Origin: Shigella phage PSD9
Reading direction: 5' to 3' (one strand)
Length of the DNA: 64,000 nucleotides
Sequence record: MZ561532
Shown here: positions 34,706 to 59,404 of the stretch, piece by piece
Layout of the letters: every line of letters begins with the position of its first letter
Position numbering within the stretch: position 1 is the first letter of the stretch
Program-made: the position numbers and the translations under genes
The notes under the pieces: model-generated
What the model saw: the letters and a program-made list of their open reading frames with translations, nothing else
Databases searched by the model: none
Told to the model about the DNA's origin: nothing

Positions 34706-34947
34706 AGGAAACCTCGTTTAAATTCAACTTTATCGATATCATCAGTCTCGTGACGGATTTCGGCATTAAATTCGATAGAACCGTCTTCATGCATCATAAA
34801 TGAATGGACAATAACTTCGGTATACCAAGGAGTATAAAAGTACTTTTTCAATACATGATTAGCGATAATTTCATCCAAAGTTTTATTTGGTTTAATCCAA
34901 CGATTTAACATAGTGTTCTCCTCTATAAGATAAGACCATCTTAACAC
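34702..34947 (-). CDS. Hypothetical protein (81 aa; start uncertain)
   Basis: Track ORF. Confidence 0.45.
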   Translation of the reverse strand: MLRWSYLIEENTMLNRWIKPNKTLDEIIANHVLKKYFYTPWYTEVIVHSFMMHEDGSIEFNAEIRHETDDIDKVEFKRGFL

Positions 34948-34977
34948 GGCCTTCCTAGAAAGTAAACCCTTAAAACC

Positions 34978-35000
34978 AAAAAAAGGAACCCGAAGGTTCC
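34978..35000 (-). terminator. Intrinsic terminator GGAACC-UUCG-GGUUCC plus U7, after soc
   Basis: ggaacccgaaggttcc immediately 3' of the soc stop on the minus strand, followed by a U run. Confidence 0.6.
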
Positions 35001-35006
35001 TTATAA

Positions 35007-35240
35007 TTAAACTACTGGGGTCGGCGTGAACATTGCTGCGTTCTTAGTTCGCCAATCGGCTGCATCAGTCACTACAGTAGTATAGGCTGCAACGGCCGAA
35101 GGGAAAGTCTGATAATGAGAGTCTGCAATACGGTGCTCGTTTGAATAAATCTCAAACGGGACCGAAACCTCAGTACCTTTAACTTCTTTACCTTCACCAG
35201 CTGGATGTGTAAAGGTTTTGATATTAACGAAACCACCCAT
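35007..35240 (-). CDS. soc: Small outer capsid protein Soc
   Basis: 77-aa ORF; GFVNIKTF...KEVKGTEVSVPFEIYSNEHRIADSHYQTFPSAVAAYTTV matches recalled T4 Soc; has its own late promoter and terminator. Confidence 0.8.
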   Translation of the reverse strand: MGGFVNIKTFTHPAGEGKEVKGTEVSVPFEIYSNEHRIADSHYQTFPSAVAAYTTVVTDAADWRTKNAAMFTPTPVV

Positions 35241-35271
35241 AATTAACTCCTTTGTTGTTTAATTACAGGTG

Positions 35272-35279
35272 TATTTATA
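35272..35279 (-). promoter_or_regulatory. Late promoter TATAAATA for soc
   Basis: Minus-strand TATAAATA 32 nt upstream of the soc ATG. Confidence 0.55.
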
Positions 35280-35281
35280 AC

Positions 35282-35803
35282 TTAATAACCTCGGTCCTGG
35301 CGAGCAAAGTTCTCGGCATTTTTCAGGTAATACAATTTAAAGATTTCTTCAGCAGTCAGACCAAGACCCTGGAACATATTCAGAACGAAATGGAGAATAT
35401 CAATCATTTCAAATTTAATTTCGAGCTGGTCTTCAGGAGACAAATCGTTAATCAAGGTTTCACGACGTTCAGCATGTTGAGCTTTCCAAGGCTTCCATAC
35501 TGCTGATGCATCTTTTTCACCATTGCTCATACCGCCAAGAGAAGTCAGAAGTTCACGGAATTCATCATCAATATAATCTTTCTGATTACGCAGCCAATCA
35601 ACAACTTCACCTGCAGTAGCCAAATCATCAGGATGACGGTTATATTCAGGTTTATCTTTAGATAAACGAACCTGTAATGATTTCTGCATATCAAGCATAA
35701 CCTGCAGAGGGTCTTTATCTTCATGAATCAGAGCATTAAAATAAGCTTCCTCAGCTTTATCAACACCATCAATCAGGTTTGCGCATTCGTTAAAGTGTGC
35801 CAT
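35282..35803 (-). CDS. 56: dCTP pyrophosphatase (dCTPase/dUTPase) gp56
   Basis: 173-aa ORF; MAHFNECANLIDGVDKA...DPLQVMLDMQ...DDEFRELLTSLG...IFKLYYLKNAENFARQDRGY closely matches recalled T4 gp56. Confidence 0.9.
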   Translation of the reverse strand: MAHFNECANLIDGVDKAEEAYFNALIHEDKDPLQVMLDMQKSLQVRLSKDKPEYNRHPDDLATAGEVVDWLRNQKDYIDDEFRELLTSLGGMSNGEKDASAVWKPWKAQHAERRETLINDLSPEDQLEIKFEMIDILHFVLNMFQGLGLTAEEIFKLYYLKNAENFARQDRGY

Positions 35804-35867
35804 TATATTTTTCCTTTTTCAATTCATTAATAAGTTAGATAATTATAACATTAAAATTTGTAAGCAA

Positions 35868-36728: not shown

Positions 36729-38211
36729 CAAGACTTACCCCATTCACAACATTTTCTGCATACTGCCATTCTAAATCGGTAATGTTGAAGCGTTCTTGAA
36801 TCATTTCACGGGTCCACTTCTTGGTAAAATCAACTACAGGAGCGTTTTGAACCATTTTTTTACCGCCGGTACCACCGCCAAGTCCTAAAAAATATTGACA
36901 TGCTACTTTAATAGGGGCGTATGAATAAAATTCAATAGCATTTTCGGCTTCTTCAAAAGTATCAAAAGAGGCCCAAGCCTGTAAAGGTGGCTTTTCTTTT
37001 GTAATACGGGTTTTGGTGTTTGTCATAGCACTATAAAATAACTTGCCCATAATAATTTCAGAATTATCAGATGTAGTTGATGAAGGACCCAATTTCCTAA
37101 TAAAGTTCACATAGTATTCTTTTTCTACACCTTCATAATTATTAAGTTTTTCTTTAGTTCGGGTTTTATCTGCTATAGATTTTGCACTTTTATTATTCAA
37201 AATAATAGAAACAAAATCGTCATTATTATAATTATATTTAGCTTTTGTTCTTCCATTAATTAGGGTAAATCCTTGGGTTTCATTTTTAGAAAATTTTGAT
37301 ATCGCCAAAGCTGTTGTCGGTGAAGCAGAAAAGTACTTATTACCGCCATTGCAATCTATAATAGCATAATTTAGCCTTTTTTTAGCTTCAGGCCTGTGAG
37401 ATATAACTCCCATTGAATATAAAAAAGATGCTGGGGTGATAGATATTACATTATCTGCACATTCCAAGGCTTTATCTAAAAATTTCACATCACTCGTAAA
37501 TGGAGGATTCATGATAACTGTATTAAATTTCATTTTCTTAGGGGCCTTAATGAATTCAAATCCAGAGAAACATCCGAAAGTATCAAATACATATCGAGCT
37601 TTATCTGAATCAGTTGAAATGAATAAGATATCGGAAGTATCGTATCCGATAAGAGATAATAATGAAACAATTTCAAGGGATTCAATAACACAAATACGCT
37701 GAGACCAACCCATTGAATATGCAACCATTATATCACTCATTTCAATAAGCGTTTTTGCTGCTTCAAAAGTCATTACATTAGAGGTTTCCGCTGTTTGGGT
37801 GAATTTACCATCCATGGAGTGGATATAACGGTCATAATGGATTTTGGTATCAGGTTCAGATAAATCAAATTTAACAAAGCAGCGTTTTTCTTCAGAAAGA
37901 CCACGGACGCGGTTTGTTATAGAATCCCAATACTCATCAATGTAAATACCTTCAAGAGAAAAAGCTTCATGCTCATTAAGATTTGATTTAATAATTTCAA
38001 TCATGTCTGAAGGCTTAAGGCCTGATTCAAGAAGCTCTTGGATTTTAGCCAATTTTTCAGCATTACCTTGAGGGTCGGCCTTATTGAATTTTTTAGCTTC
38101 TTCAAAATGTTGCTCAGGCCGAGCACTTACACCTTTACCAAAGTAGAAAGGTTTTTTGTCTTGGTCTACTAAGCGATATACCTGATAAATTGTTTCCTGA
38201 TTGTAAGCCAT
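36712..38211 (-). CDS. GIY-YIG nuclease-like domain fused to an amino-methyltransferase-like domain (NPPF motif), 499 aa
   Basis: N-terminus IYQVYRLVDQDKKPFYFGKGVSARPEQHF resembles the GIY-YIG signature (UvrC/I-TevI type); central FNTVIMNPPF resembles MTase motif IV; occupies the 56-61 interval where T4 has dam. Confidence 0.55.
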   Translation of the reverse strand: MAYNQETIYQVYRLVDQDKKPFYFGKGVSARPEQHFEEAKKFNKADPQGNAEKLAKIQELLESGLKPSDMIEIIKSNLNEHEAFSLEGIYIDEYWDSITNRVRGLSEEKRCFVKFDLSEPDTKIHYDRYIHSMDGKFTQTAETSNVMTFEAAKTLIEMSDIMVAYSMGWSQRICVIESLEIVSLLSLIGYDTSDILFISTDSDKARYVFDTFGCFSGFEFIKAPKKMKFNTVIMNPPFTSDVKFLDKALECADNVISITPASFLYSMGVISHRPEAKKRLNYAIIDCNGGNKYFSASPTTALAISKFSKNETQGFTLINGRTKAKYNYNNDDFVSIILNNKSAKSIADKTRTKEKLNNYEGVEKEYYVNFIRKLGPSSTTSDNSEIIMGKLFYSAMTNTKTRITKEKPPLQAWASFDTFEEAENAIEFYSYAPIKVACQYFLGLGGGTGGKKMVQNAPVVDFTKKWTREMIQERFNITDLEWQYAENVVNGVSLDEISN

Positions 38212-38228
38212 TTTTGTATCTCCAGTAG

Positions 38229-38268
38229 TTGATATGTCTATAGTATCATATCTAGCAGGGATGTAAAC
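38229..38268 (-). promoter_or_regulatory. Early promoter with conserved box, upstream of the 499-aa ORF
   Basis: Minus strand GTTTAC-N17-TACTAT-AGACATATCAA. Confidence 0.5.
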
Positions 38269-38275
38269 TGATTTT

Positions 38276-38283
38276 TATAAATA
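38276..38283 (+). promoter_or_regulatory. Late promoter TATAAATA on the plus strand
   Basis: Exact TATAAATA 21 nt upstream of the plus-strand ATG 38305, followed by SD aggagga. Confidence 0.5.
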
Positions 38284-38304
38284 ATAATTTAACAGGAGGA
38301 TAAC

Positions 38305-38505
38305 ATGGGCAGTATTTTTTACCAAATCTGGAAATTGGCTGAAAAGAAAGACAAGAAAATGATGTTAGGTTTTCTTGCACTAGATGTGTTCCTTTGGAAT
38401 CTTCTGGTAGTCCCTGTAGCCGCCAGCCAAGGGATAATTTTACCAGCGGTTACAATGGAGCACGTGTTAAGCATAATTGGATTCTTTAGCGGAATTCCTG
38501 CCTAA
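38305..38505 (+). CDS. Small membrane protein (66 aa), late-promoter driven, opposite strand to neighbours
   Basis: ATG with strong SD aggagga; hydrophobic segments (LGFLALDVFLWNLLVVPVAA, LSIIGFFSGIPA); TATAAATA upstream. Confidence 0.5.
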   Translation: MGSIFYQIWKLAEKKDKKMMLGFLALDVFLWNLLVVPVAASQGIILPAVTMEHVLSIIGFFSGIPA

Positions 38506-39530
38506 ATCTTGGAATATTTTGAAAGTCTCATTTTTGCCATTAAACCTTGGGCTATATTAGCTTTCATATATGCCAGTACATCATTTATATCAGCTTTATC
38601 TTTCATAATCATATCATTTATATCTTTAGAAGGCCATGGAGCCTTGTCCCAGAATAGAACCCTTTCGCCAGCATCAACTAATCGTTGCATACGCTTAATT
38701 GTGTCAGGATGGCGGGGTTCATTGTCCATTACCCAGGCACGAGTTTCTTTACACGGAACCATAGCCAAGTCCAACGACCCGCCAGTAATTGCTATTGCAT
38801 TCGGTACGAATAATGAATCGATAGGACCTTCCATTACCCACACCAACTGACGTTCGTCGACAGTATCCATTCCATATATTTTTGTAGCTTGGTCATGAGC
38901 TTTTATTGTAATATATTTTTGTGGAGCATCTTTACGTAAGGCTCGACCCTGAAAACTTTCAATTTGTTTATTCTTATTGAAAATTGGAATAACCAAACGA
39001 GGCTCAGGCATTTCTTTAGAATAGGTCCCTGGATTGACAGAGTTCACCAATGCCGGCCATTCTTTAGTAAACCATAAGCGATTCCATTTGTTTTCAGGAA
39101 TGCAACGTAGTGTTACATATTTGATAATAGGATGGTCCTTTGGCATTCTATCCAGACGTTCACAGAAATTAAGCTTTTCGATGACAGGCATCTTGGCTTT
39201 AATCTTTTCTGATATCTCCACCTTAGGTGCAGCTTGTCTCCCGAACGATTGCTCTTTATGTTTCTCAAGAATATATTCTCGATATAAATCAGGCTCATAT
39301 TCGTATAGATACTTCTTAATTCCTGCTGAATAGTCACAGTTAAAACAGTGCAGCATTACGGAGCCGTCATTGGCCGGATAGGCCCAAAAACGAGCTTTGT
39401 TCTCATCTTTTAGGGAGTCGCCACATACACGACAACGACAGTTTAATTTAAAATCACTACCAGTTACTTGTCTGAATTTAGGTTGATAATTCAAGGCACG
39501 TACAGCAAATTCTCTATCGACATATGACAT
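38502..39530 (-). CDS. 61: DNA primase gp61
   Basis: 342-aa ORF, same length as T4 gp61; zinc-binding CRCRVCGD...CFNC motif; position next to gene 41. Confidence 0.85.
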   Translation of the reverse strand: MSYVDREFAVRALNYQPKFRQVTGSDFKLNCRCRVCGDSLKDENKARFWAYPANDGSVMLHCFNCDYSAGIKKYLYEYEPDLYREYILEKHKEQSFGRQAAPKVEISEKIKAKMPVIEKLNFCERLDRMPKDHPIIKYVTLRCIPENKWNRLWFTKEWPALVNSVNPGTYSKEMPEPRLVIPIFNKNKQIESFQGRALRKDAPQKYITIKAHDQATKIYGMDTVDERQLVWVMEGPIDSLFVPNAIAITGGSLDLAMVPCKETRAWVMDNEPRHPDTIKRMQRLVDAGERVLFWDKAPWPSKDINDMIMKDKADINDVLAYMKANIAQGLMAKMRLSKYSKI

Positions 39531-39746
39531 TATTTTTCCTTGGGCTCTAAATTAATAGAGCCATTATATCATTCGTTTTCGGATTTTTCTTTACGCTTTT
39601 TAGATGGGATTTGTTCAGGCCCTTTGTTGACGACCGCGCCTGAGGTAGTTCCGGAGGCAATATTAGATGGGTTACCACCTGCATCGCCTGCGACCATATC
39701 TTCGTTCATAACTTCTTTAAAAGATTTCATAGGCTCCTGGCCTTAT

Positions 39747-39938
39747 TTATATTACGAAAATAGCTTTATCACCATTCGCATCAGTGACTTCATAGGTATC
39801 TTCATGATACAGTGGGATAATCCAAGTCACACCATCACCGGCAATAATATGGATAGCTTCTTGGTCCTTTGATACGATTTCATACTCTTCGAATAATTCG
39901 AATACAGAAATCTTAGAGCCCGTACACATTGCACTCAT
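39747..39938 (-). CDS. Hypothetical protein (about 63 aa; start uncertain)
   Basis: Track ORF 39747..39956. Confidence 0.4.
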   Translation of the reverse strand: MSAMCTGSKISVFELFEEYEIVSKDQEAIHIIAGDGVTWIIPLYHEDTYEVTDANGDKAIFVI

Positions 39939-40134
39939 ATTGTTCCCTTCTCTCAATCAGTTGGCGATGGGCCTTTTTAAGTTTACGAAGCTGGCGCTTA
40001 GTTGGCCGTGCAACATAAGCTTGAGTAGTTACTCGACCAAAAACACCGTACTTAGGTGAAGGAGAATCGATAAAGACTTCCCACTGACAAGAGTAACTAT
40101 ACACCGCTTTAGAGAATTGAGTTAAGACAAACAT
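39913..40134 (-). CDS. Small basic protein (73 aa), paralog of ORF 40922..41161
   Basis: Shared C-terminal motif ...(V)ARPTKRQLRKLKK... versus ...VKPTKRQIRQTKRK... Confidence 0.45.
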   Translation of the reverse strand: MFVLTQFSKAVYSYSCQWEVFIDSPSPKYGVFGRVTTQAYVARPTKRQLRKLKKAHRQLIERREQYECNVYGL

Positions 40135-40135
40135 A

Positions 40136-40576
40136 TTAACCTCGATTCATAAAGGCATTAAAAATCTGGTCATCTATTGAATAAACCGGAGCTTCCAGAA
40201 TTTTCAACAGACTGTTTTTGATATACTTGCTAGGGATGTCCATATTAACGCGGTCGTTCAATTCGTTGTCTGGGAGGATGTCTTTAAATTCGAATCCATC
40301 AAACTCAACCTTGTCAGGAATACCTTCAGCGAAAAAATAAACCAATTGGTGCATTGTATTGCACGAAAATAATTTAGACCTCACCGCGATAAGTTCTTGC
40401 CAATGGTTTAATTCTCTGTTAAGAAGTTTATGAGCCATTGTAATTCGATCATCGCTATCAACAAGAAAATAACCCAGGTATTGGTGGTCGTCGCTCCAAA
40501 ACATCCTGTATGCTTGTGCATTTGGATTTTTACAACGAAGTTTTTTGATAACTAAATTTCTGTTAATCTTATTCAC
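40136..40576 (-). CDS. Hypothetical protein (146 aa)
   Basis: Track ORF. Confidence 0.5.
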   Translation of the reverse strand: MNKINRNLVIKKLRCKNPNAQAYRMFWSDDHQYLGYFLVDSDDRITMAHKLLNRELNHWQELIAVRSKLFSCNTMHQLVYFFAEGIPDKVEFDGFEFKDILPDNELNDRVNMDIPSKYIKNSLLKILEAPVYSIDDQIFNAFMNRG

Positions 40577-40862
40577 CTGTCACCTCTTTAACGATATTTT
40601 TGTTATCGAAATTGGCATCACAATACAAATTCCAGTTATATTGCATAACACCACCTGAAGCTAATTGGTCTGACACTTCTTTAGCCATGTCAGGACGGTC
40701 GCGTTTAGTGATGTTCATGATATCAGCATAAATCTGATGCTCAACCGCTTCTTGATCGGCAGTCATAGACCATTCACAAAGGTCTTTATCCAATCCAGCC
40801 GTAACTGGAGCCGTGCCACATGACGCTACTGTAAGGATTGCTGCGATTAATAACTTTTTCAT
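40569..40862 (-). CDS. Predicted lipoprotein (about 97 aa)
   Basis: Track ORF 40569..40892; ATG 40862 gives MKKLLIAAILTVASCG (signal peptide plus lipobox); directly downstream of an early promoter. Confidence 0.55.
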   Translation of the reverse strand: MKKLLIAAILTVASCGTAPVTAGLDKDLCEWSMTADQEAVEHQIYADIMNITKRDRPDMAKEVSDQLASGGVMQYNWNLYCDANFDNKNIVKEVTGE

Positions 40863-40879
40863 AATGTTCTCCTCGGTAG

Positions 40880-40920
40880 TTGATAGGTCCATAGTATCAC
40901 TACCATAGACCGTTGTAAAC
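40880..40920 (-). promoter_or_regulatory. Early promoter with conserved box
   Basis: Minus strand GTTTAC-N18-TACTAT-GGACCTATCAA. Confidence 0.5.
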
Positions 40921-40921
40921 T

Positions 40922-41161
40922 TTATTTTAATGAATCTTCCAAAGAAATTTTACGGAATTTACGTTTTGTCTGACGAATCTGACGCTTAGTGGGCTTCACA
41001 GGAAATTCGAAGAACTCTACGTATTCTTGTTCATAATCGTTGTGGCCCACTGAAAGAACTAGTTCCCAGTTGTTTACGGTACGTTGGATAAACATATTAT
41101 GCTTACCGAAAGATTTATTCCAAAAAGAGCTAGGAGTTGGTTTCATTAGTACGATATTCAT
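40922..41161 (-). CDS. Small basic protein (79 aa), paralog of ORF 39913..40134
   Basis: Track ORF; shared PTKRQ(I/L)R motif. Confidence 0.45.
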   Translation of the reverse strand: MNIVLMKPTPSSFWNKSFGKHNMFIQRTVNNWELVLSVGHNDYEQEYVEFFEFPVKPTKRQIRQTKRKFRKISLEDSLK

Positions 41162-41302
41162 TTATTCCTCGCCTTCATGTTTATGAGCAATTTCTTCGAA
41201 TTCGCTGTCACAGTCTAAACAGGTTGCGTTGTCCCAAGCATCAAATACCGCCTGGTCTTCACAGACCGAACAACCACATACTACACATTCAAATTCTTCC
41301 AT
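41162..41302 (-). CDS. Small zinc-ribbon protein (46 aa, below the ORF-track cutoff)
   Basis: ATG 41302 abuts the upstream stop, and its stop abuts the downstream ATG; translation MEEFECVVCGCSVCEDQAVFDAWDNATCLDCDSEFEEIAHKHEGEE. Confidence 0.45.
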   Translation of the reverse strand: MEEFECVVCGCSVCEDQAVFDAWDNATCLDCDSEFEEIAHKHEGEE

Positions 41303-41497
41303 TTAGATTTCCTCAATGCGAGCATCATGTTCATAAACTTCTACGTCGTCGACATAGGCCTTGACTAGAATACTATTGACTTCAGCGAATTGGGTAGCCA
41401 CCCACACAATATCGTTTTCACGCACTGAAGCTTCTTTGGTAGCGGTATCACCGTTGGCGAAATGGCCGACAAATTTTACTTTAATTGATTCAGACAT
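41303..41497 (-). CDS. Hypothetical protein (64 aa)
   Basis: Track ORF. Confidence 0.5.
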   Translation of the reverse strand: MSESIKVKFVGHFANGDTATKEASVRENDIVWVATQFAEVNSILVKAYVDDVEVYEHDARIEEI

Positions 41498-43338: not shown

Positions 43339-43652
43339 CTCTTAGATTTAATTTTATCCAGTTCTTCTTGTATTTGCATTGTAACACATTTTTCTACATG
43401 AAGCGCCAGCTCTTCTTTTCGGTCTTCGGAAGGTGTTCCGAAATCAACCGACACTTTTCCATCTTTCTCAATAACAATATTCATCACATAAACGATGTGA
43501 GCAGTGCCATCGGGTAAAGTAAGCATAATTTCCTGCTTAACCGATCCCATTGACTTACGGATTATATCTAATGATTTCTCATAATAACGAGGGTCACTAG
43601 GACCCTCTTCGGTATCTTTAACGAAATTATCTAAATCAGATAAATCAGTCAT
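43323..43652 (-). CDS. 40: gp40-like protein (assigned by position between uvsX and 41)
   Basis: 109-aa ORF; synteny 41-40-uvsX as in T4; sequence identity unverified. Confidence 0.5.
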   Translation of the reverse strand: MTDLSDLDNFVKDTEEGPSDPRYYEKSLDIIRKSMGSVKQEIMLTLPDGTAHIVYVMNIVIEKDGKVSVDFGTPSEDRKEELALHVEKCVTMQIQEELDKIKSKRWWKW

Positions 43653-44817
43653 CTAAATCCATCTCTTCCAAATCGTTTTCGATATCAGCGGCGCTTTGGG
43701 CATTACCACCTAATTTAACAGCAACGTTCTTAGAGACACGAGAGTTAATAAGGTCGTTCACTGCATCGTCAACTTCTTTAATAGAATTAATTGCACCGAG
43801 CTTATACTTATTCTCGATTGCTTCACGGAACGGGGCATGTTTAAACAGCGGTCCCCAGAACTCGACACAATCGGTAGCTTTAGCACGCCATGCTTTTTCT
43901 TCTTGAACCATTTCGCCTGTGGTTTCGTCAAGGAATGCACGATTATACCAGCCAGCTTTAGGTTTCACGACAAAGCCAATATCAGTAGCCATTTCAAGCA
44001 ATCCACTGAATGGGTCGATACCACCTTCGAAGTTCACTGTAATCGGGAACGTTGATTTCTCTTTAACCGTACGAGATTTCTCGGCCTTCAGTGTGAAGTC
44101 ATAACCAGTGAGCTCAGTACCATCTTTAACCTGACGTTTAGAGATAAAGAACACGGTAGAAGCAGAGTACAGAATACCAGTACCACCACCCATAATCTCT
44201 TTAGGGTACATTCCACCAATTTCCATAGCCGTGTGGTTAATTGCTACACAAGGGATATCTTTGATAGTCAGATAAGGTGTTACGATACGGAACAGAGATT
44301 TCAGTGACTTAGCACGGGTCATATCACCTACAACTTTCTCGTTCAAAGCATCTTCGGTTTCTTTCTTAGAAGCAGTGTTACCAATGGAGTCGATAAAGAT
44401 AATAACCTTTTCGCCACGAGTAATTTCTTCTAACTGGTTGGTCATATCAACTTTAAGCTGTTCGACTGACTGGATTGGTGTATGAACCACACGTTCCAAA
44501 TCAACACCCATCGAACGGAAATAAGATTCTGAAGCACCAAACTCAGAGTCATAGAACAAACAAATTGCGTCTGGATATTTCTTCATATATGCCGCAACCA
44601 TGGTAAGTCCAAACAACGTTTTAAAGTGTTTAGATGGAGCAGCAAAGATTGTCAAACCTGATTGTAAGCCTGCATTCAACGCACCGCCTAATGCAATATT
44701 CAGCATAGGGATACGAGTAGGAACTTCGTCACGACCATTAAACAATTTAGATTTGGTCAGGTCGGCGGTCATTTTAGAAGTAGAAGCTTTAATCAAACGG
44801 GATTTTAAATCAGACAT
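43645..44817 (-). CDS. uvsX: Recombinase UvsX (RecA-like)
   Basis: 390-aa ORF; N-terminus MSDLKSRLIKASTSKMTADL and much of the body match recalled T4 UvsX. Confidence 0.9.
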   Translation of the reverse strand: MSDLKSRLIKASTSKMTADLTKSKLFNGRDEVPTRIPMLNIALGGALNAGLQSGLTIFAAPSKHFKTLFGLTMVAAYMKKYPDAICLFYDSEFGASESYFRSMGVDLERVVHTPIQSVEQLKVDMTNQLEEITRGEKVIIFIDSIGNTASKKETEDALNEKVVGDMTRAKSLKSLFRIVTPYLTIKDIPCVAINHTAMEIGGMYPKEIMGGGTGILYSASTVFFISKRQVKDGTELTGYDFTLKAEKSRTVKEKSTFPITVNFEGGIDPFSGLLEMATDIGFVVKPKAGWYNRAFLDETTGEMVQEEKAWRAKATDCVEFWGPLFKHAPFREAIENKYKLGAINSIKEVDDAVNDLINSRVSKNVAVKLGGNAQSAADIENDLEEMDLDD

Positions 44818-44894: not shown

Positions 44895-45788
44895 TTAAAG
44901 GACCACGTCCTCATAACTTGGCATTTCGTGCTCAGAATGGATGTGGGCACCGAAATAAATGAATTCAGCCAGACCAGGATGAAATACTAAACTGGGATTC
45001 TCATGATAAATGATATGAGGTCTTGATTTCAGAATCTGATAATATTCAACCTTACTCGGTTTGAATTTAATAATCTCTACATCAGGACGATAGTCTTCAC
45101 GCTTAAATGAATCATTCGGATCGGTGATATAAAGGCGAGAACCTTCAGCCGCAGCTTGGTCTACAACTCTTTCGAATTGATAACATTTATCAGAGATACG
45201 GAATGGATGGAAAATACCATCAATTTTAATAGGCGCTAGACCTTCAGAGTAACGCTCAATTACTGCGGGATTAATTACCTTTTGGTCTACAAAAATCTTA
45301 TCAGAGGACGCACCTCGTGACACCAGGACGTCTTTCTGACATTGATTCAAGACTGTAGTATAAATCGAACGTTCAACTGAACCCACGTCGGTATCAATAA
45401 ACTCATCGATGTAATAACGAGGAACTTCAGGGTCCATTGTAATGTTAAAGTTGAATTGTACGGTATGAGCACCATCATAACCTGTGATATCGGTTACCAA
45501 TCCTGAGCAGTCATAGTATTCGATTAACGAATCAACAACGAACTCATTTTCAGACCAAAAATGTTTACGAGTTTCATAAGCATTTTCTTTATACCAAAGA
45601 GGTACAAAATTCAGTTCAGGAAATAATTCAATGCATTCTTTGATATCGCTCGAATTTCTAGGATAAGCCAGATAATCACCTGGGCAAGCACGGTTTAAAT
45701 GGAGTTGAAAATTACCGTCCTTAAGGACGGCATATTCACCTGTTTCGTAACTACGCATACTGAAAATAGGAACGATAAACAAACTCAT
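44895..45788 (-). CDS. Hypothetical protein (297 aa) occupying the T4 beta-glucosyltransferase position; candidate DNA-modification enzyme
   Basis: Lies between uvsX and gene 42 where T4 encodes beta-gt; no similarity to recalled beta-gt; start overlaps the gp42 stop (ATGA coupling). Confidence 0.5.
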   Translation of the reverse strand: MSLFIVPIFSMRSYETGEYAVLKDGNFQLHLNRACPGDYLAYPRNSSDIKECIELFPELNFVPLWYKENAYETRKHFWSENEFVVDSLIEYYDCSGLVTDITGYDGAHTVQFNFNITMDPEVPRYYIDEFIDTDVGSVERSIYTTVLNQCQKDVLVSRGASSDKIFVDQKVINPAVIERYSEGLAPIKIDGIFHPFRISDKCYQFERVVDQAAAEGSRLYITDPNDSFKREDYRPDVEIIKFKPSKVEYYQILKSRPHIIYHENPSLVFHPGLAEFIYFGAHIHSEHEMPSYEDVVL

Positions 45789-46483
45789 TTCAGGAATCCT
45801 CGAACGTAGTCAAAATCACGTTCAAATACGTGTGCACTAACCATAGTATGGGAATACGTACCCAGACCAACACCACACTGTTCAGCAATAAAGGCCATCA
45901 GTTTACCCTGCAGATAGAAATCCAGCTGCATAACAATAGCACAGTTCTGTGAACGCATATGGGTATGTGCATAAAGACGTCCATCACGAATATAATATGT
46001 CACTGAATCAGTACATGGATATTCTAAGGATTCGTCAGAATCAAGGAGGGCTTGGTCTTGTTCTTGGAGAATTTGGAACACAACTCGTCTTGAGTTAGGC
46101 TTCTCTTTAAGCTCTTTAAGTAAGGCTGGGAGTTGGGCCACAATTCTAGGTCCATAGAAAGTGTTGAAGTTTGCAGGCAATACGTCACTTTTCGGCTTAT
46201 CAATGAACTTAGCAACATTAGGGTATTCCTTAAATGCTTCGGCGGCGTCAGTACCACCAGAAATCATAAACTTCCAGAAAGATTCGGCATAATCATAGCT
46301 GATACGATTAATACGAGGGTCGGTGAATTTATAGGTGCTTGCATCCAGTACTTCTACCGAAGCAGAACCAATTTCATAACAACGGCCGATACGAGAATCA
46401 ACTGCAAACTGTGGAGCTTCCAGGATTTCTTCGTTCATTTGCTTAAACGCGTTTTCAAAACTAACAGCGGTAATGTGTTTCAT
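45785..46483 (-). CDS. 42: dCMP hydroxymethylase gp42 (thymidylate-synthase fold)
   Basis: 232-aa ORF; KPNSRRVVF, CTDSVTYYIRDGRLYAHTHMRSQNCAIVM and SAHVFERDF align with recalled T4 gp42 (NPDSRRGIM, CTNTVQYLIRDKKINAVVNMRSNDVVFG, GSLHVYSRHF). Confidence 0.8.
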   Translation of the reverse strand: MKHITAVSFENAFKQMNEEILEAPQFAVDSRIGRCYEIGSASVEVLDASTYKFTDPRINRISYDYAESFWKFMISGGTDAAEAFKEYPNVAKFIDKPKSDVLPANFNTFYGPRIVAQLPALLKELKEKPNSRRVVFQILQEQDQALLDSDESLEYPCTDSVTYYIRDGRLYAHTHMRSQNCAIVMQLDFYLQGKLMAFIAEQCGVGLGTYSHTMVSAHVFERDFDYVRGFLK

Positions 46484-47016
46484 TTATTCACCTTATTTTC
46501 AATATATTCATTCAGACGTTTTAATTCTACCATATCGACGTTAAGCAAGTTATTATGGCCGTCGTGATTTAAGATTTTAAACACGTTTTCAAAACATGTT
46601 TCGTATTGGCGGATAGTTAGGTTGAACTCATCTTTGGTTAATTTAATAAGGTCATCTTCAAAGTCTTTATCCAGTGGATTACGGGTTAAAATAACCTCAA
46701 TAATATTGAATTCAGATTTAAACCTTTTCCAATCTTCCAGTTCTACATAAGGGTCCATTTCACCGCGAAGGAATCCCGAGTAAACAATATTACTTGGATA
46801 ACCACGGTCAAGGATGTAAACGAAATTAGGGTCTAAAAACTTATACAACGTCTCGACTAAAGCCTTGTCATTATCGGTCCCTAATGAAATGCATTTGCCA
46901 TTAATCTTTTTAGGGAAATCAATAAGACGATATTTCTTATCAGATAAAAGTGATTCAATTAAAGTAGACTTCCCGGAATTATCCGGGCCGTCGATAACAA
47001 TGATTTTTGGTTTCAC
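46480..47016 (-). CDS. P-loop nucleotide/nucleoside kinase-like protein (thymidylate-kinase fold)
   Basis: Walker A IVIDGPDNSGKSTL at the N-terminus and a downstream LDRGYPS (DR motif); ATGA coupling to gene 42. Confidence 0.6.
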   Translation of the reverse strand: MKPKIIVIDGPDNSGKSTLIESLLSDKKYRLIDFPKKINGKCISLGTDNDKALVETLYKFLDPNFVYILDRGYPSNIVYSGFLRGEMDPYVELEDWKRFKSEFNIIEVILTRNPLDKDFEDDLIKLTKDEFNLTIRQYETCFENVFKILNHDGHNNLLNVDMVELKRLNEYIENKVNK

Positions 47017-47387
47017 GGATGATATGCCTTATAGGTTTCAAGAGTTCCTTCACGAACCATTTCTTTAAAGTGGTCAGGACGGATTGCTCGGTCATCGATG
47101 ATAAAAGTATAACTCGGCTTATGTGTAAGCAGATTGTGATATTTCAATCCAATCTTTTCAAGGTTCTTAACTAATGCAGGAACTACTTCAACCAAGATTC
47201 GACCCGGGCCGCATGAAGTCATACCACGGGCAGTGAACAAGGTAATCTCGTACCCTTCATCATAAAGCTTATTAATCATGGACACCATTTCGGTGTCCGG
47301 TTTAAAGTTTTCGTAATCACGGTCATCTTGCCAGTGAGTAATGGTATTATCGATATCAAAACACAGATGCATTAAATTTTCTTCCAT
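47013..47387 (-). CDS. HAD-superfamily phosphatase-like protein
   Basis: HAD motif I CFDIDNTIT (DxDxT), motif II LFTARG, motif IV FIIDDRA; ATGA coupling to the kinase gene. Confidence 0.6.
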   Translation of the reverse strand: MEENLMHLCFDIDNTITHWQDDRDYENFKPDTEMVSMINKLYDEGYEITLFTARGMTSCGPGRILVEVVPALVKNLEKIGLKYHNLLTHKPSYTFIIDDRAIRPDHFKEMVREGTLETYKAYHP

Positions 47388-49045
47388 TGTTTGTGGAGTT
47401 CGGTAGAACCTGTAGGTTTATATTTTACACCAGTTTCCTGGTCAAGCAAAACCCACTTATCAGGACAACGAGTGATAATTTGAGCCGTGATAGGGTCGCG
47501 AACTTCATCAACGAATTCACCTGTGATAAGCTTACGCTTACGAGGATGCCGCTTCAGCAGCACACTCAGTTGATATAGCCCATTGTAATAAGCGCCCAGA
47601 GCTTTCAGAGGGTTATTTTTAAAGTAACCTGCCAATGCCATCCAAATAACGGCAATCCAGAGCTTGTGCTTAAATGTACACATCGGAATATCATCTAAAG
47701 GCATAACCTTTTCAATATCAACGAATACACGAGTTCCGTTACGAGTTAAGCCACCCCATAGAGGGTCAGAGTTAAATTTGTCATAACCATCGATAGAATA
47801 AAGCACCTTAGCTTCATCATAAATCGCAGGGCCTTTAGAACTATTACCAAAATAACCACGTGGGTCGATGATTTTAATATTACCTTCGTCCGACAACATA
47901 ATATTACTGTAGTGCGGGTCGCCATGAATAAGTTGGTACGGTTCTTTATGTTCAGACAGAATTTCTAGTGCATGACGAAGAAGTTTTTCAGGGTCGCCTA
48001 CCTTAAAGTCATTGACATGGGTAATGCCCTGTGGAGCAAAGCCTTCAATCAATCCGGCAATAGAAGCATTACGAATAAGGACCTTGTCCAATACTTCTTT
48101 CTTAACATCAGAATACCATTGCTCATCGGACGGATTATCGATAGTCCCACCGAACGAACGTAATGCACTAATAACCTTATAAACCATTAGGACTTTAGTT
48201 TCTTTAGACATAAACCGGTAGGCATCTGCCATGGTTCGACCAAAGATACGTTCCATTTTAATGAATTCGCCTGGAGCAAAGTCTACAATGCTAGGAACGA
48301 ATTCGGAATCAATAGAATTATACCAATTGATTTCTTTAGATTGGATTTCTTTACCCAATTCGTTAGTTGGTACTTTAATAGCTAGATTCTCGGTGAACTC
48401 TAATTTATTAAATTCACGGTTAATTTCAGAATCTTCATGCGCCTTAGCCAGTTTCAGTTTGTCACCAACATCAACTACAAAGTCTAACTTACGTTCAGTC
48501 AAATGGACCATTGAATCCAGGTTGTCAGCAAGGTCTTCACCATAATTAGAACGGTCGAAACCTGTCCAATTAGCCACCTGATACAAGCCAACTACGCCAC
48601 CACCGGTACCAATTTCACGCAAGTACGGTTCTTCAAATGTAAAACGACAGTCAGTCCCATAGGTATAACAGTAGTCGTTATCCCACTCAACTTTATGACC
48701 TTCAGGAATAATATCACACCAGTTAAACAAGACATTGTGCCCAATGATATCTTCGGCAATGCAATCGATAGCATGAGCCGAACCATTGGCAACATCAACG
48801 TTACGAATAGTGAATTTAGGCTTATCACTATTAATCATGTTAATGGATTTAATATAGCCTTTAACGAGGTCGTTAAATTTGCTGTGAATAACCAGAATAA
48901 TTTCATCTGATTGATTACTATACAAATCATACAAATGTTTTAATACAGTATGTTGTTTGTAGTTAACCAGTACCTTCGGGATTTCGTTGGTAATTGGATA
49001 CAACCGTGAGCCAAGACCCGCGCCTAAAATAACAACCTTTTTCAT
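47372..49045 (-). CDS. Bifunctional sugar-1-phosphate nucleotidyltransferase / APH-type anomeric sugar kinase-like protein
   Basis: Track ORF 47372..49075; ATG 49045 with SD GAGGAAC gives MKKVVILGAGLGSRLYPITNEIPKVLV (nucleotidyltransferase G-x-G-x-R-L motif); C-terminal HGDPHYSNIML and IDPRGYFG are kinase catalytic and metal-binding motifs of the aminoglycoside-phosphotransferase fold. Confidence 0.6.
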   Translation of the reverse strand: MKKVVILGAGLGSRLYPITNEIPKVLVNYKQHTVLKHLYDLYSNQSDEIILVIHSKFNDLVKGYIKSINMINSDKPKFTIRNVDVANGSAHAIDCIAEDIIGHNVLFNWCDIIPEGHKVEWDNDYCYTYGTDCRFTFEEPYLREIGTGGGVVGLYQVANWTGFDRSNYGEDLADNLDSMVHLTERKLDFVVDVGDKLKLAKAHEDSEINREFNKLEFTENLAIKVPTNELGKEIQSKEINWYNSIDSEFVPSIVDFAPGEFIKMERIFGRTMADAYRFMSKETKVLMVYKVISALRSFGGTIDNPSDEQWYSDVKKEVLDKVLIRNASIAGLIEGFAPQGITHVNDFKVGDPEKLLRHALEILSEHKEPYQLIHGDPHYSNIMLSDEGNIKIIDPRGYFGNSSKGPAIYDEAKVLYSIDGYDKFNSDPLWGGLTRNGTRVFVDIEKVMPLDDIPMCTFKHKLWIAVIWMALAGYFKNNPLKALGAYYNGLYQLSVLLKRHPRKRKLITGEFVDEVRDPITAQIITRCPDKWVLLDQETGVKYKPTGSTELHKQWKKI

Positions 49046-49105
49046 TATCTGTTCCTCAAGTGAATGTAGGTACATTATACACTATTTTTAATAAATTGGT
49101 ATTGC

Positions 49106-49606
49106 TTAAATCTTATCTTTACCGATTTCAATACACTGTTCTATTGCCGCCGGTACTTTGGTCTTGAGCTTATCGATTTGTTTCTTATAATCACGAGCTT
49201 TACCGAAGCTCTCGGTTTCGAGCATTTCGTAATAACGAGCCTCGTGGATGGAAATCTGTAGATTGATATGGTTTACGCACATCGCATACAGTTTCTGCTT
49301 TTTGTACAAATCATCTTGACGCTTCATTTCTGCCTGGTGTTTGGCTAGTACCGCTTCACGCTTGGACTCTTGTTCACGTTGGAATTCGATTTCTTGTTGA
49401 GCATATTTTGCACAGTTATTACCGCATTGATTATTAGCTCGGGTGTACACAAGTCCAGAACCTGCACGGAATTTCATTTCGCCATCGAATTGTTTCTGTT
49501 CAGCTGCGATACGAGCTTTACCAACTTCATCGGCCGAAACTGTATCACCATATTGGACCGCGCAACCTGATAGGAGCATACTCATTGCGATAATTAACTT
49601 TTTCAT
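49106..49606 (-). CDS. Predicted lipoprotein (166 aa)
   Basis: Signal peptide and lipobox MKKLIIAMSMLLSGC; downstream of the imm-like genes. Confidence 0.55.
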   Translation of the reverse strand: MKKLIIAMSMLLSGCAVQYGDTVSADEVGKARIAAEQKQFDGEMKFRAGSGLVYTRANNQCGNNCAKYAQQEIEFQREQESKREAVLAKHQAEMKRQDDLYKKQKLYAMCVNHINLQISIHEARYYEMLETESFGKARDYKKQIDKLKTKVPAAIEQCIEIGKDKI

Positions 49607-49613: not shown

Positions 49614-49751
49614 TCAATTAAAACAGTTATACTTAATTTGTGCTATAAGAATAATCCATCCAATGATGAGTGTCGGAATCATTGGCGGAATTGCCACTGC
49701 CCAATAAACGGTAAAGGCAGCCATTATAAGAAATAAAACAATTATTTTCAT
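49614..49751 (-). CDS. Small membrane peptide (45 aa), imm.1-like by position
   Basis: ATG 49751 overlaps the imm stop (ATGA); translation MKIIVLFLIMAAFTVYWAVAIPPMIPTLIIGWIILIAQIKYNCFN. Confidence 0.35.
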   Translation of the reverse strand: MKIIVLFLIMAAFTVYWAVAIPPMIPTLIIGWIILIAQIKYNCFN

Positions 49752-50046: not shown

Positions 50047-52758
50047 TTAAAAGTCGAACATATCAAATAATGTTGCTTTTTTCTCGTAGTCGATTTTAGC
50101 AGACTCAGTAAAACCGGTCAGAGGTTTGATAAAGGTCTTTTGGAACAGTACGTTGTAGTCCATCCAACGGAGGACTTGGTCACGAATCTGAACCGGAAGT
50201 TCAATACCTGACGGCCATGCCATACAAGCTTCACCAAACGGGTTGCCTTCTTTAAGTGGCAGTACATATACCTTTTCACCATCAACGATACGAGGCATAG
50301 TCAAATCACCTGCAGAAGCACGCATGTAAGCTAAGCAACCTTTGATGTGGTATGGACATTTAGAACCCGGGAATCCACCTTCATTATATTTCTCGATGTT
50401 GTTAGCACTGGATACTGCTGCAATGCTTACATAATCGAGTTCGTTAAATTCCTTATTAAACTGTTTGAAATATTCTTGCAAAGATGCCTCGCCTTCCTGA
50501 AGCATACGACGGATACATTCCTTCAGAGCTTTCTGAACTGCTTTAGGTGTACTTGATTTCTGAGTTTCGAGACCCATGATTTTCAAGTGTGGTTCAGCAT
50601 AACGAGTACCTTCCATGTCCCAAACGTTAAGTGCATAACGTTTCTTGCCTGTCCAGAATCCACCAAGGCCTTTAGAACCAAGTGGAGGACCTGCGATAGC
50701 TTCTCGGTCCATGAACATCAAGTGTTGTTTGTTGTTCATGTATTCGCACATCTCACGGAAGCCTGCATCAATAGCTGGTTCCATACGTTCACGTGCAAAT
50801 TTATCTAAGAAGTCGACCCAGTGGTTAGTATCACGGAATTTATCTTCGCCTACTTTATTGATGATTGCATCTGCCTTAACATAAATGGAGTCAGTATCAC
50901 CGTAGAGCACGAACTTCTGGTTTTCAGTCTTACACACACTATTCAGATATTCGTTAACCTTACGTTCAATCCATTGGAGGGCCATTTGACCAAACAATGT
51001 GATTGCAGTTGCGTTCCTGAGGTCATAGTAACGGAACCATACGTTACCAAGTGCACCATAAAGGGAGTTGATAAGCAACTTACGGTTAATCTGAGCAGTG
51101 TTACCTGCAACTTCAGTGAGCTCGGCTTTCTTCAACATTTCTCTTAAAGAAGGCGCTGACAGTGCTTTAATCTGGGCTTTGATTTCGTCAGAGAAGTCAA
51201 AACGATAATCGATATCCAGTGGACTATCAACTGAGAGATTAGGATTTTCCAATGCTTCTTTAATTAACTCGCCATTACGTTGAGCTGCAAGCATGTAACC
51301 TTTATGTTCTTTACGCTGCAAGAATACCTTTGTGATTTCTGTCGGAATCACACCTTCACGGTCTTTATAATACATCATGCCGTTAGGAGAGCAACTGTAG
51401 GTGTCGCTAGGACGCGGAGCTGTTCCGGCAATATATTCATGTATCGGTGCGTTAGCGAATGTCCCTGCGATGGTCTCTGGGCTTATATTCACTTGTCGAA
51501 TGATACTCGGATACAGAGATGTAAGGTCGAAACTCATTACATATTTGTAAGCGTTAGGAATCGGTTCCTTAACGAAAGCACCAGGATAAGGTTGGACCAC
51601 GTGTGAGCGAGCTTGTGGAATTACCTTGCCTTGTTCTTTAAGGCTATTAAAGATAATAGCGTCCCAAGTCTTAATTGGGCTGAACACCGACTGAATCTGC
51701 ATCTTGGCATAATAACCCATGTCCAAACTCAGAAGAATGAACTGACGCTTCATATCAATCTGCACTACACGATATACGTCGATAATGTTATAGGAAATAT
51801 ATCGTTGGTGGTTCGTCTCACGTAACTTAGAGATTGGACCATCATATTTCAACTTACCCACTTTCAATTCATATTCAGAAACATAATCCAGAGAATAAGA
51901 AGGCTGGTTGGTGAAGCTGAATTTTTTATAGAGGTCGATATAATCCAGAACAGAGATACCGAACAATGTAATGATTTCACGAGCACCGTACATGTTCTCA
52001 ATAACTTTAACACGAGTTTTACGATGTGGGCTTAATCGCTTAGCAGTGTTCTCACCGAACAGATTTTTCAGACGGTTATAAACGTACGGTACGTCAAACG
52101 ACTCAACGTTCCATCCAGTCAAAATCACAGGAGTTTTCTGTTGCCAGAAATTCAAGTACTCAAGCATCATTTCTTCTTCAGAATTAAACGGAAGATAAAC
52201 GATTTTGTCAATGATTTCCTGTGGAACTTCGTCACCGCCTTCGTCTTGGAGTTTCTCAGCGATTTTAATCGACCACTCTTCGACAGTACCATAAGGCGAA
52301 ACTAAAAGGTCGAATACATAGAATTTATCGTCAATCGAGTCGTAGTGGGTAATGGCATCGATAGGATGTTTAGCCTGAGCTGGTTCAGGGAATCCATCAG
52401 GAGATGTTACCTCGATGTCGAAGTTAGCAATACGAATCTTAGAAGAATCATATCTGATTTCTTTACGATAGGTATCAGACAAATAGGCTAATTTATAGTC
52501 GTCCATACCCAGGGCTTCGAGACCCATATCGTCCATACGTTTCATCCATTGGGATGCATCACGCATAGAGTCGAATTCTTTCTTAACACAACCCTTACCA
52601 TAGATATCAATGTATTTTACGGCTTGCTCTGGATTAGCATGCATAAACATTGTAGGCTTGTAAGGAACTTCACGACTACGTTCGTTACCATTTTTATCGA
52701 TGTAACGTTCGAGAATATTATCACCGATTTGTTCGACTGTCAAATAGAATTCTTGCAT
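50047..52758 (-). CDS. 43: DNA polymerase gp43 (family B)
   Basis: Track ORF 50047..52818; ATG 52758 gives MQEFYLTVEQIGDNILERYIDKNGNERSREV..., matching the recalled T4 gp43 N-terminus (MKEFY...); exonuclease and polymerase motifs (e.g. YGDTDS) conserved throughout. Confidence 0.95.
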   Translation of the reverse strand: MQEFYLTVEQIGDNILERYIDKNGNERSREVPYKPTMFMHANPEQAVKYIDIYGKGCVKKEFDSMRDASQWMKRMDDMGLEALGMDDYKLAYLSDTYRKEIRYDSSKIRIANFDIEVTSPDGFPEPAQAKHPIDAITHYDSIDDKFYVFDLLVSPYGTVEEWSIKIAEKLQDEGGDEVPQEIIDKIVYLPFNSEEEMMLEYLNFWQQKTPVILTGWNVESFDVPYVYNRLKNLFGENTAKRLSPHRKTRVKVIENMYGAREIITLFGISVLDYIDLYKKFSFTNQPSYSLDYVSEYELKVGKLKYDGPISKLRETNHQRYISYNIIDVYRVVQIDMKRQFILLSLDMGYYAKMQIQSVFSPIKTWDAIIFNSLKEQGKVIPQARSHVVQPYPGAFVKEPIPNAYKYVMSFDLTSLYPSIIRQVNISPETIAGTFANAPIHEYIAGTAPRPSDTYSCSPNGMMYYKDREGVIPTEITKVFLQRKEHKGYMLAAQRNGELIKEALENPNLSVDSPLDIDYRFDFSDEIKAQIKALSAPSLREMLKKAELTEVAGNTAQINRKLLINSLYGALGNVWFRYYDLRNATAITLFGQMALQWIERKVNEYLNSVCKTENQKFVLYGDTDSIYVKADAIINKVGEDKFRDTNHWVDFLDKFARERMEPAIDAGFREMCEYMNNKQHLMFMDREAIAGPPLGSKGLGGFWTGKKRYALNVWDMEGTRYAEPHLKIMGLETQKSSTPKAVQKALKECIRRMLQEGEASLQEYFKQFNKEFNELDYVSIAAVSSANNIEKYNEGGFPGSKCPYHIKGCLAYMRASAGDLTMPRIVDGEKVYVLPLKEGNPFGEACMAWPSGIELPVQIRDQVLRWMDYNVLFQKTFIKPLTGFTESAKIDYEKKATLFDMFDF

Positions 52759-52814
52759 TTCATTTCCTTTATAGACGAGTGATTGTCTTTTGTTTGTTGA
52801 TGAATCATTATACT

Positions 52815-52834
52815 CCAAAAGGGACCGAAGTCCC
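52815..52834 (-). terminator. GGGAC-UUCG-GUCCC hairpin plus U4 between regA-side genes and gene 43
   Basis: gggaccgaagtccc followed on the minus strand by UUUU, then a TATAAT-like hexamer (plus 52807..52812) upstream of the gene 43 leader. Confidence 0.5.
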
Positions 52835-59350: not shown

Positions 59351-59404
59351 AATCTACCTTTATAATGTATTTCATAGATTCATTTTATCATCCAAATATA
59401 AAGC

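Follow-up and report, generated by a model that had tools for sequence, protein, structure and literature searches.

The window analysed here is a stretch of 64,000 nucleotides from Shigella phage PSD9 (sequence record MZ561532), which is part of a Dhakavirus genome (Straboviridae, Tevenvirinae). Five genes on its minus strand form a cluster between uvsX and the DNA polymerase gene (gene 43). They encode a bifunctional sugar-activating enzyme, a HAD-family phosphatase, a P-loop nucleotide kinase, a homolog of thymidylate synthase (the ThyA homolog) and a 297-residue protein (Table 1). On the basis of sequence comparison, the cluster is very probably the Dhakavirus version of the arabinosyl-5-hydroxycytosine (arabinosyl-5hoC) pathway of T4-like phages. 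The orthology of the five proteins, their signature residues and catalytic motifs, the fold of the transferase, the gene absences and the presence of the deoxycytidine triphosphatase (dCTPase) gp56 were computed in this study. The five open reading frames (ORFs) are located exactly where an initial annotation of the same DNA had put them. Over the 4.2-kb interval, the identity to phages E33 and LHE83 is 99.3% and that to phage WG01 is 99.2%. The interval is contained at nearly full length in 51 phage records, and the whole window is collinear with WG01.

Table 1. Features of the modification cluster and related loci in the window (aa, amino acids)
Feature	Length (aa)	Position	Strand	Remarks
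GT-B fold glycosyltransferase (predicted)	297	44895..45788	-	ortholog of RB69 gp46:47 ('arabinosyltransferase 1'), DLP3 gp79, Thanatos TH1_063
Thymidylate-synthase-superfamily enzyme (ThyA homolog)	232	45785..46483	-	Pfam Thymidylat_synt; ortholog of RB69 gp48
P-loop, thymidylate-kinase-like nucleotide kinase	178	46480..47016	-	GTG start; ortholog of RB69 gp45, DLP3 gp78
HAD-family phosphatase	119 (124 if start 47387)	47013..47372	-	ortholog of RB69 gp51, DLP3 gp81, HY126 AfhF
Bifunctional sugar-activating enzyme (predicted)	557	47372..49045	-	ortholog of RB69 gp53:52, DLP3 gp82, HY126 AfhE
uvsX		43645..44817		flank, one side of the cluster
DNA polymerase (gene 43)		50047..52818		other flank, beyond a lipoprotein-like ORF, a 45-aa membrane ORF and imm
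gp56 dCTPase/dUTPase homolog	173	35282..35803	-	Pfam dUTPase_2 (2e-6); annotated gp56 dCTPase in WG01
TATAAT hexamer		49074..49079	-	upstream of the bifunctional gene; read directly from the sequence; candidate -10 element

The DNA of RB69 and of the Acinetobacter phage DLP3 carries arabinose in ether linkage to 5hoC and not to hydroxymethylcytosine (hmC), with the arabinose identified by nuclear magnetic resonance (NMR) (PMC13326640). Dhakaviruses are named among the genera with a syntenic cluster (Lee et al. NAR 2026, PMC13326640). A comparison of the ThyA homolog with known enzymes shows that it belongs with the RB69 protein. It shares 79% identity with RB69 gp48 (E value 4e-145) and only 25%, over 159 residues, with T4 gp42 (7e-11). 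Among PDB entries it matches 9iqu, 9iqc and 9ir2 at an E value of 6e-126, compared with 1.3e-5 for the T4 hydroxymethylase 1b49. The criteria for the RB69-type enzyme are an Asn at the position of ThyA Asp169, the catalytic Cys146, an Asp at the position of Asn177 (preference for deoxycytidine monophosphate, dCMP) and an acidic residue at the position of Leu143. In our alignment with E. coli ThyA, the phage's own td product, T4 gp42 and RB69 gp48, the ThyA homolog keeps Cys146 (PCT, residue 157) and carries L143E, N177D and D169N. Around residue 169, it reads RSQN as RB69 gp48 does, while T4 gp42 reads RSND and E. coli ThyA reads RSCD. Asp169 is retained by T4 gp42 and by both true thymidylate synthases. 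The D169N exchange has been proposed as diagnostic of flavin- and O2-dependent 5-hydroxy-dCMP (5hodCMP) synthases, and all nine diverse D169N homologs tested made 5hoC (PMC13326640). RB69 gp48 itself converts dCMP to 5hodCMP with O2 and flavin (PMC13326640). With D169N and these nine results, the ThyA homolog is best read as a predicted flavin- and O2-dependent 5hodCMP synthase, and the predicted acceptor base is 5hoC rather than hmC.

The initial annotation had taken the ThyA homolog for gp42, the dCMP hydroxymethylase, and hmC for the modified base. The identity with T4 gp42 was ruled out by the 25% identity, the low rank of 1b49 and the change of Asp169 to Asn, and the prediction of hmC gives way to that of 5hoC. 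In the corresponding alternative, a true gp42-type hydroxymethylase would make hmC and the module would put a non-glucose sugar on it, giving arabinosyl-hmC as RB69 DNA was described in 2018. The gene does occupy the gp42 position between uvsX and gene 43, N177D and L143E are common to hydroxymethylases, and the older literature as well as many GenBank records name the protein dCMP hydroxymethylase. However, its closest characterised relative is a verified 5hodCMP synthase, the residue that distinguishes the D169N enzymes is Asn here and Asp in T4 gp42, and the RB69 DNA has been re-determined as an arabosyl ether of 5hoC. We regard arabinosyl-hmC as highly improbable.

The bifunctional enzyme is formed by an N-terminal sugar-1-phosphate nucleotidyltransferase and a C-terminal APH-type kinase. 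Pfam detects NTP_transferase (2.5e-8) at residues 3-100 and APH (9e-6) at residues 346-417 of the 557-residue protein, which are residues 13-110 and 356-427 of the 567-residue ORF, and the match to phrog_4098 spans the full length. Residues 1-215 align with RB69 gp53 (44% identity, 1e-54) and residues 214-557 with RB69 gp52 (41%, 1e-76) in a collinear manner. These two RB69 genes are a single gene split by a sequencing error. The bifunctional enzyme shares 80% identity with the homolog of Klebsiella phage Marfa and 44% with Thanatos TH1_060, and it contains intact LGAGLGSRLYPIT, HGDPHYSN and IIDPRG motifs, with G-x-G-x-R and H-x-D-x4-N present. The start at 49045, which the initial annotation had also chosen, is the most likely one because of the upstream GAGGAA Shine-Dalgarno sequence, the annotation of WG01, and a TATAAT that overlaps the alternative ATG at 49075.

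The HAD protein is 62% identical to RB69 gp51 (8e-61) and matches the PDB entries 9iqw (E value 1.6e-51) and 1xpj (3.5e-12). Its HAD motif I (DxDxT) is intact as DIDNT. The Pfam HAD match is weak, and so is the match to NCBIfam TIGR01689 (capsule biosynthesis phosphatase). The domains named earlier for the four proteins, namely NTP_transferase with APH (557 residues), HAD, P-loop kinase and Thymidylat_synt (232 residues), were all recovered in our searches.

For phage HY126, the sugar route of He et al., in the part reported in PMC13326640, consists of phosphorylation of arabinose-5-phosphate at C1 by AfhE, removal of the 5-phosphate by AfhF and formation of UDP-arabinofuranose by AfhE. Such a route from arabinose-5-phosphate via arabinose-1,5-bisphosphate and arabinose-1-phosphate to UDP-arabinofuranose explains the presence of a HAD phosphatase. 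By analogy with AfhE, the fusion is predicted to be an arabinose-5-phosphate 1-kinase and a UDP-arabinofuranose pyrophosphorylase, and the HAD protein is predicted to strip the 5-phosphate from arabinose-1,5-bisphosphate. As the fusion is only 41-44% identical to RB69, its specificity for arabinose-5-phosphate and UTP is a prediction from the homologs. The initial annotation had expected that the phage activates its own pentose, with arabinose named as an example, and the orthology of the fusion and the HAD protein to the RB69/HY126 route agrees with this. Of the sugar route it had drawn, activation by a kinase and a nucleotidyltransferase stands, and the start from a free sugar does not, since the characterised homologs, as far as they are described in PMC13326640, start from arabinose-5-phosphate.

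The same two enzymes raise the question of a target other than DNA. Database names such as 'capsule biosynthesis protein/phosphatase' for the HAD protein, together with MurU-like and heptose-pathway-like matches of the nucleotidyltransferase domain, would fit a module that activates a sugar for capsule, lipopolysaccharide or cell wall and leaves the DNA unaffected. Against this, the module is strictly linked to the dCMP-modifying ThyA homolog and the dCTPase in about 350 T4-like phages, the relatives with analysed DNA carry pentosylated cytosine, and Thanatos cannot grow without its ortholog of the fusion (Brandt et al.). A non-DNA target is thus hardly credible.

The 297-residue protein had been proposed as the candidate transferase, with a glycosyltransferase fold expected from a structure search. 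Searches of Pfam, NCBIfam and PDB sequences with this protein gave no matches, PHROGs assigns it to a family of unknown function, and none of its 117 homolog clusters in a large protein collection has a named function or a Pfam domain. Its fold is therefore revealed only by structure prediction. The predicted structure is a GT-B glycosyltransferase fold with a predicted local distance difference test (pLDDT) score of 95, and Foldseek relates the model to MshA (3c4q). This reproduces the fold result of Lee et al. for RB69 gp46:47 (PMC13326640). The PDB entries 9iqz and 9ir0, titled 'phage HY126 glycosyltransferase', share a deposition series with 9iqu/9iqc/9ir2 and 9iqw. The protein is 70% identical to RB69 gp47 and 63% to gp46, which are another single split gene, 69% to the Marfa transferase and 51.5% to Thanatos TH1_063. 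Its gene lies directly downstream of the hydroxylase gene, as in RB69, Marfa and Thanatos. Both the proposed role and the expected fold are supported by these data. From fold and orthology, the 297-residue protein is predicted to attach the base-proximal arabinose to 5hoC.

The gp56 homolog lies about 9 kb from the five-gene cluster and is counted as a member of the pathway; its retention, as assumed in the initial annotation, is confirmed. For missing genes, we searched the window and the complete genome of WG01, the nearest complete genome, by tblastn at E<=1. Within this scope, no match was found for RB69 gp55 (arabinose-5-phosphate isomerase), gp50 (Peptidase_U32), gp49 and gp3 (second arabinosyltransferase), nor for T4 alpha-gt and beta-gt. 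Homologs of RB69 gp3 are confined to Mosigvirus, Acinetobacter phages and one Tegunavirus, and homolog searches with RB69 gp3 or gp50 gave no sign of Dhakavirus. The cluster is a minimal five-gene version of the RB69-type pathway and lacks genes of a complete RB69-type cluster. With orthology to the arabinosyl-5hoC pathway and no alpha-gt or beta-gt in WG01, the earlier expectation of a phage-encoded, non-glucose hypermodification of cytosine is sustained.

As the phage isomerase is absent, the host must supply the arabinose-5-phosphate, which E. coli produces with KdsD and GutQ for Kdo synthesis. The pathway had been called self-contained; this is right for the sugar activation, which is phage-encoded, and wrong for full self-sufficiency, given the missing isomerase. 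A single transferase in the genome leads us to expect mono-arabinosyl-5hoC, for which Thanatos is the precedent, and by this analogy we consider mono-arabinosylation somewhat more probable than another product.

The enzymatic activities, the identity of sugar and nucleotide and the final nucleoside are all drawn from the work on RB69, HY126, DLP3 and Thanatos, and the following course of reactions can be proposed. gp56 would convert dCTP to dCMP and so remove dCTP. The ThyA homolog would hydroxylate dCMP at C5 with flavin and O2, yielding 5hodCMP. Kinases would raise it to the triphosphate, which the phage polymerase would incorporate in place of dC. In parallel, the kinase domain of the fusion would phosphorylate arabinose-5-phosphate, provided by the host KdsD and GutQ, at C1. 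After removal of the 5-phosphate by the HAD phosphatase, the nucleotidyltransferase domain of the fusion would make UDP-arabinofuranose. The GT-B enzyme would finally transfer the arabinose to the 5-hydroxyl group.

Several points weigh against the assignment to the arabinosyl-5hoC pathway. Our literature search found no chemical analysis of Dhakavirus virion DNA, and it found no reconstitution of the activity of a gp46:47-family transferase from UDP-arabinofuranose to 5hoC. Single DLP3 glycosyltransferases were inactive on 5hoC-DNA (PMC13326640). The fusion and the P-loop kinase are merely 37-44% identical to their RB69 counterparts, and their specificity for sugar or nucleotide could differ. 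The role of the extra kinase in the cluster is unexplained, given that the RB69 gp1-type deoxynucleoside monophosphate (dNMP) kinase already phosphorylates 5hodCMP (PMC13326640). In addition, Brandt et al. reported that purified Thanatos TH1_063 formed UDP-xylose from xylose-1-phosphate and UTP.

The UDP-xylose formation by TH1_063 is at odds with the predicted GT-B fold and with the assignment of Lee et al. It may be a reverse or side reaction, or may come from a co-purified host enzyme. Taken at face value, it would make the 297-residue protein a UDP-pentose pyrophosphorylase and the sugar a xylose or deoxypentose, with transfer by the 557-residue fusion or another protein; Brandt et al. indeed proposed TH1_060 as the transferase. 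However, the confident model of the 297-residue protein is a GT-B fold and not a nucleotidyltransferase fold. The canonical G-x-G-x-R pyrophosphorylase signature is found in the fusion, whose HY126 homolog is reported, in the available account of that work, to have this activity. Moreover, the NMR data on RB69 and DLP3 identified arabinose, and neither Thanatos protein moved xylose to DNA, dCMP, dCTP or cytosine (Brandt et al.). A pyrophosphorylase at this position is quite improbable, and the protein is better explained as the predicted arabinosyltransferase.

The P-loop kinase leads to a different question, the timing of the transfer. The kinase is 37% identical to RB69 gp45 (9e-35) and 84% to the Marfa homolog, its Walker A motif is GPDNSGKS, and it matches phrog_761 'thymidylate kinase' (9e-40). 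For this enzyme, the family and the association with the cluster can be stated, while the computationally testable features of membership are found in the other four of the five enzymes. Kinase and transferase co-occur (344 and 354 phage records, respectively, with matching genus counts). The kinase gene adjoins the hydroxylase and transferase genes in RB69 (gp45-48), in DLP3 (gp78-80) and in the unrelated Rhizobium phage RL38J1 (gp214-216), and in the window the three genes are adjacent and translationally coupled.

These features would fit a pre-replicative order, in which 5hodCMP is arabinosylated first. The product, arabinosyl-5hodCMP, may be no substrate for the general gp1 dNMP kinase and would be phosphorylated by the P-loop kinase, after which the polymerase would build the glycosylated nucleotide into DNA. 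Such a role would account for a kinase that is redundant for 5hodCMP beside the gp1-type kinase. The data of Lee et al. do not separate a nucleotide from a DNA acceptor, and single glycosyltransferases showed no activity on 5hoC-DNA (PMC13326640). The transferase is also unusually acidic, with an isoelectric point (pI) of 4.88 and a net charge of -19 (family median pI 5.2), compared with a pI of 9.05 for T4 beta-gt. However, T4 alpha-gt is mildly acidic too (pI 6.1), so the charge is weak evidence. Characterised phage DNA glycosyltransferases all act after replication. In DLP3, the arabinoses that follow the first are attached to DNA (PMC13326640). We therefore consider transfer at the nucleotide level doubtful; if true, arabinosylation of 5hodCMP would be the first pre-replicative DNA glycosylation.

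The RB69/HY126 system of Mosigvirus (Lee et al. NAR 2026; He et al. Nat Chem Biol 2026; Mahler et al. Cell Host Microbe 2025) has five orthologs in common with the window. The identities to RB69 are 79% for the 5hodCMP synthase, about 68% for transferase 1, 62% for the HAD phosphatase, 41-44% for the fusion and 37% for the kinase. In both phages the cluster lies between uvsX and the DNA polymerase gene; the two agree in the signature residues, and each has a gp56 dCTPase. Unlike in RB69, the window cluster is without the isomerase gp55, the U32 protein gp50, gp49 and the second transferase gp3, and imm and a lipoprotein gene are located between cluster and polymerase gene. The kinase gene is found between the HAD and hydroxylase genes in the window, whereas it follows the transferase gene in RB69. 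RB69 DNA is di-arabosylated, compared with the mono-arabosylation predicted for the window phage.

The nearest cluster in sequence and gene order is that of Marfa (Marfavirus), with identities of 80% for the fusion, 84% for the HAD protein, 84% for the kinase and 86% for the hydroxylase. Its order of fusion, HAD, kinase, hydroxylase and transferase is like that of the window, and no isomerase gene is present between uvsX and the polymerase gene. The Marfa cluster differs in a U32 gene (89% identical to RB69 gp50) between the kinase and hydroxylase genes, and its transferase is just 69% identical. Shewanella phage Thanatos (TH1_060 to TH1_065) resembles the window in that just one GT-B gene, in syntenic position, adjoins the hydroxylase gene. 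Its DNA carries one pentose O-linked directly to cytosine, which makes it the best model for a one-transferase cluster. It differs in identity (44-71%), in a kinase gene that follows the transferase gene and in the presence of a U32 gene, and its authors took the sugar for xylose or a deoxypentose and assigned the GT-B protein as pyrophosphorylase.

In the glucosyl-hmC system of T4 (gp42, gp56, gp1, alpha-gt and beta-gt), hydroxymethylation is folate-dependent, in contrast to the predicted flavin/O2 hydroxylation of the window pathway. T4 takes UDP-glucose from the host, whereas the window phage would make UDP-arabinofuranose itself. The T4 transferases show no sequence-level orthology to the window transferase, and T4 gp42 is the 25% identical relative described above. 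Bacterial pairs for the recycling and activation of sugars (AmgK/MurU), with the heptose-bisphosphate phosphatase GmhB, follow a logic similar to that of the window enzymes, with an anomeric kinase, a uridylyltransferase and a HAD phosphatase that acts on a sugar bisphosphate. Unlike AmgK and MurU, the kinase and nucleotidyltransferase of the window are fused, their predicted substrate is arabinose-5-phosphate and the product would feed DNA modification. The likeness to AmgK, MurU and GmhB does not go beyond fold and family.

The pathway is already known from the discovery work of 2018 and of 2025-2026, and Lee et al. name Dhakaviruses; the reduced gene set is the sole local twist. A question raised in 2010, namely how RB69 and JS98-type phages manage without glucosyltransferases, now has a published answer. 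The pathway is of interest because DNA with arabinosyl-5hoC is resistant to restriction enzymes and CRISPR nucleases, and because phage therapy is a possible use of Dhakaviruses. From the minimal set of five genes, one would expect mono-arabinosylation and a need for both oxygen and host arabinose-5-phosphate. This set also offers a simpler genetic background for two published gaps, which concern the molecule that receives the first arabinose and the function of the additional kinase.

The assignment corrects the annotation of most of the Dhakavirus records listed in our searches, which call the five genes hypothetical, thymidylate synthase, dCMP hydroxymethylase, thymidylate kinase or phosphoheptose isomerase. 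In RefSeq and many GenBank records, the HAD phosphatase is named 'phosphoheptose isomerase' and the hydroxylase 'thymidylate synthase' or 'dCMP hydroxymethylase' (WG01 gp043-gp045). The transferase is named 'hypothetical' or 'RNA polymerase binding protein'. Such names mislead for about 50 Dhakavirus genomes.

Neighbouring genes of the five overlap in their stop and start codons, as the initial annotation had described. The junctions are ATGA between the ThyA homolog and the 297-residue protein, ATGA between the kinase and the ThyA homolog, and GTGA between the HAD protein and the kinase. The junction of fusion and HAD gene is TAATG (1 nt) with the HAD start at 47372, as in WG01, or an overlap of 16 nt with the start at 47387. 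Overlapping junctions account for 37 of the 92 (40%) in the first 50 kb of WG01 (1-50 kb). There are runs of five and six at other places, and 81% of shuffles produce a run of four or more. The overlaps were thus dropped as a sign of an unusual operon. As they are ordinary here, the joint function of the five genes rests on synteny across genera and not on the overlaps.

The module had also been described as AT-rich. Its GC content is 0.391 and that of the window 0.3925, with a lower value in the kinase gene alone (0.341). This rules out AT-richness as a mark of recent acquisition. The TATAAT hexamer upstream of the fusion gene could be the -10 element of a five-gene transcript, as far as can be inferred from its letters. 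It was not among the full sigma-70 promoters of the consensus scan. The promoter and terminator scan gave nothing above shuffled expectation, with no terminator within the cluster beyond chance. In T4, the interval from uvsX to gene 43 contains segA, b-gt, 42, imm and imm.1, so the earlier listing of beta-gt, 42 and imm was close.

RB69 gp50, which is missing from the window cluster, is a Peptidase_U32 family protein with 79-89% identity across RB69, Marfa and Thanatos, far above that of the neighbouring genes. Its 13 cysteines are invariant across these three phages. In the search for gp50 homologs, all hosts named are facultative anaerobes, and no Acinetobacter phage is among them. Members of the U32 family include UbiU/UbiV, RlhA (5-hydroxycytidine in 23S rRNA) and TrhP, which are hydroxylases that work without oxygen. 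Lee et al. label gp50 only as 'sugar or heterocycle reductase' (PMC13326640). We speculate, from few genomes, that the U32 protein is an anaerobic back-up route to 5hoC, which Dhakaviruses lack. A search of the window and of the whole WG01 genome gave no homolog of NrdD/NrdG (anaerobic ribonucleotide reductase), both of which are present in RB69 and T4. The region 59379-63980 of the window, which corresponds to WG01 36774-41375, was considered together with the nrdH-to-gene 49 interval of WG01 for this absence. With both the U32 gene and NrdD/NrdG missing, the gene content suggests that Dhakaviruses depend on oxygen for deoxynucleoside triphosphate (dNTP) supply and for DNA modification.

Two small ORFs are located between the cluster and gene 43. 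The 166-residue ORF at 49106-49606 (minus strand) carries a lipoprotein signal (MKKLIIAMSMLLSGC, lipobox LSGC) and belongs to phrog_1754, a family of unknown function. Its place is between the modification cluster and imm, an interval in which neither RB69 nor T4 has a counterpart, and it may be a superinfection-exclusion lipoprotein. The 45-residue hydrophobic ORF at 49614-49751 (minus strand) overlaps the end of imm by 4 nt and is absent from the WG01 annotation. With RB69 gp54, whose annotation reads 'similar to T4 42-imm intercistronic region', it shares 56% identity.

The window diverges most from WG01 at 8575-10228 (82.5% identity) and 33355-35848 (92.7%), while the identity elsewhere is 96-99%. 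The first of these stretches lies in the distal tail-fibre region, as would fit variation in host range.

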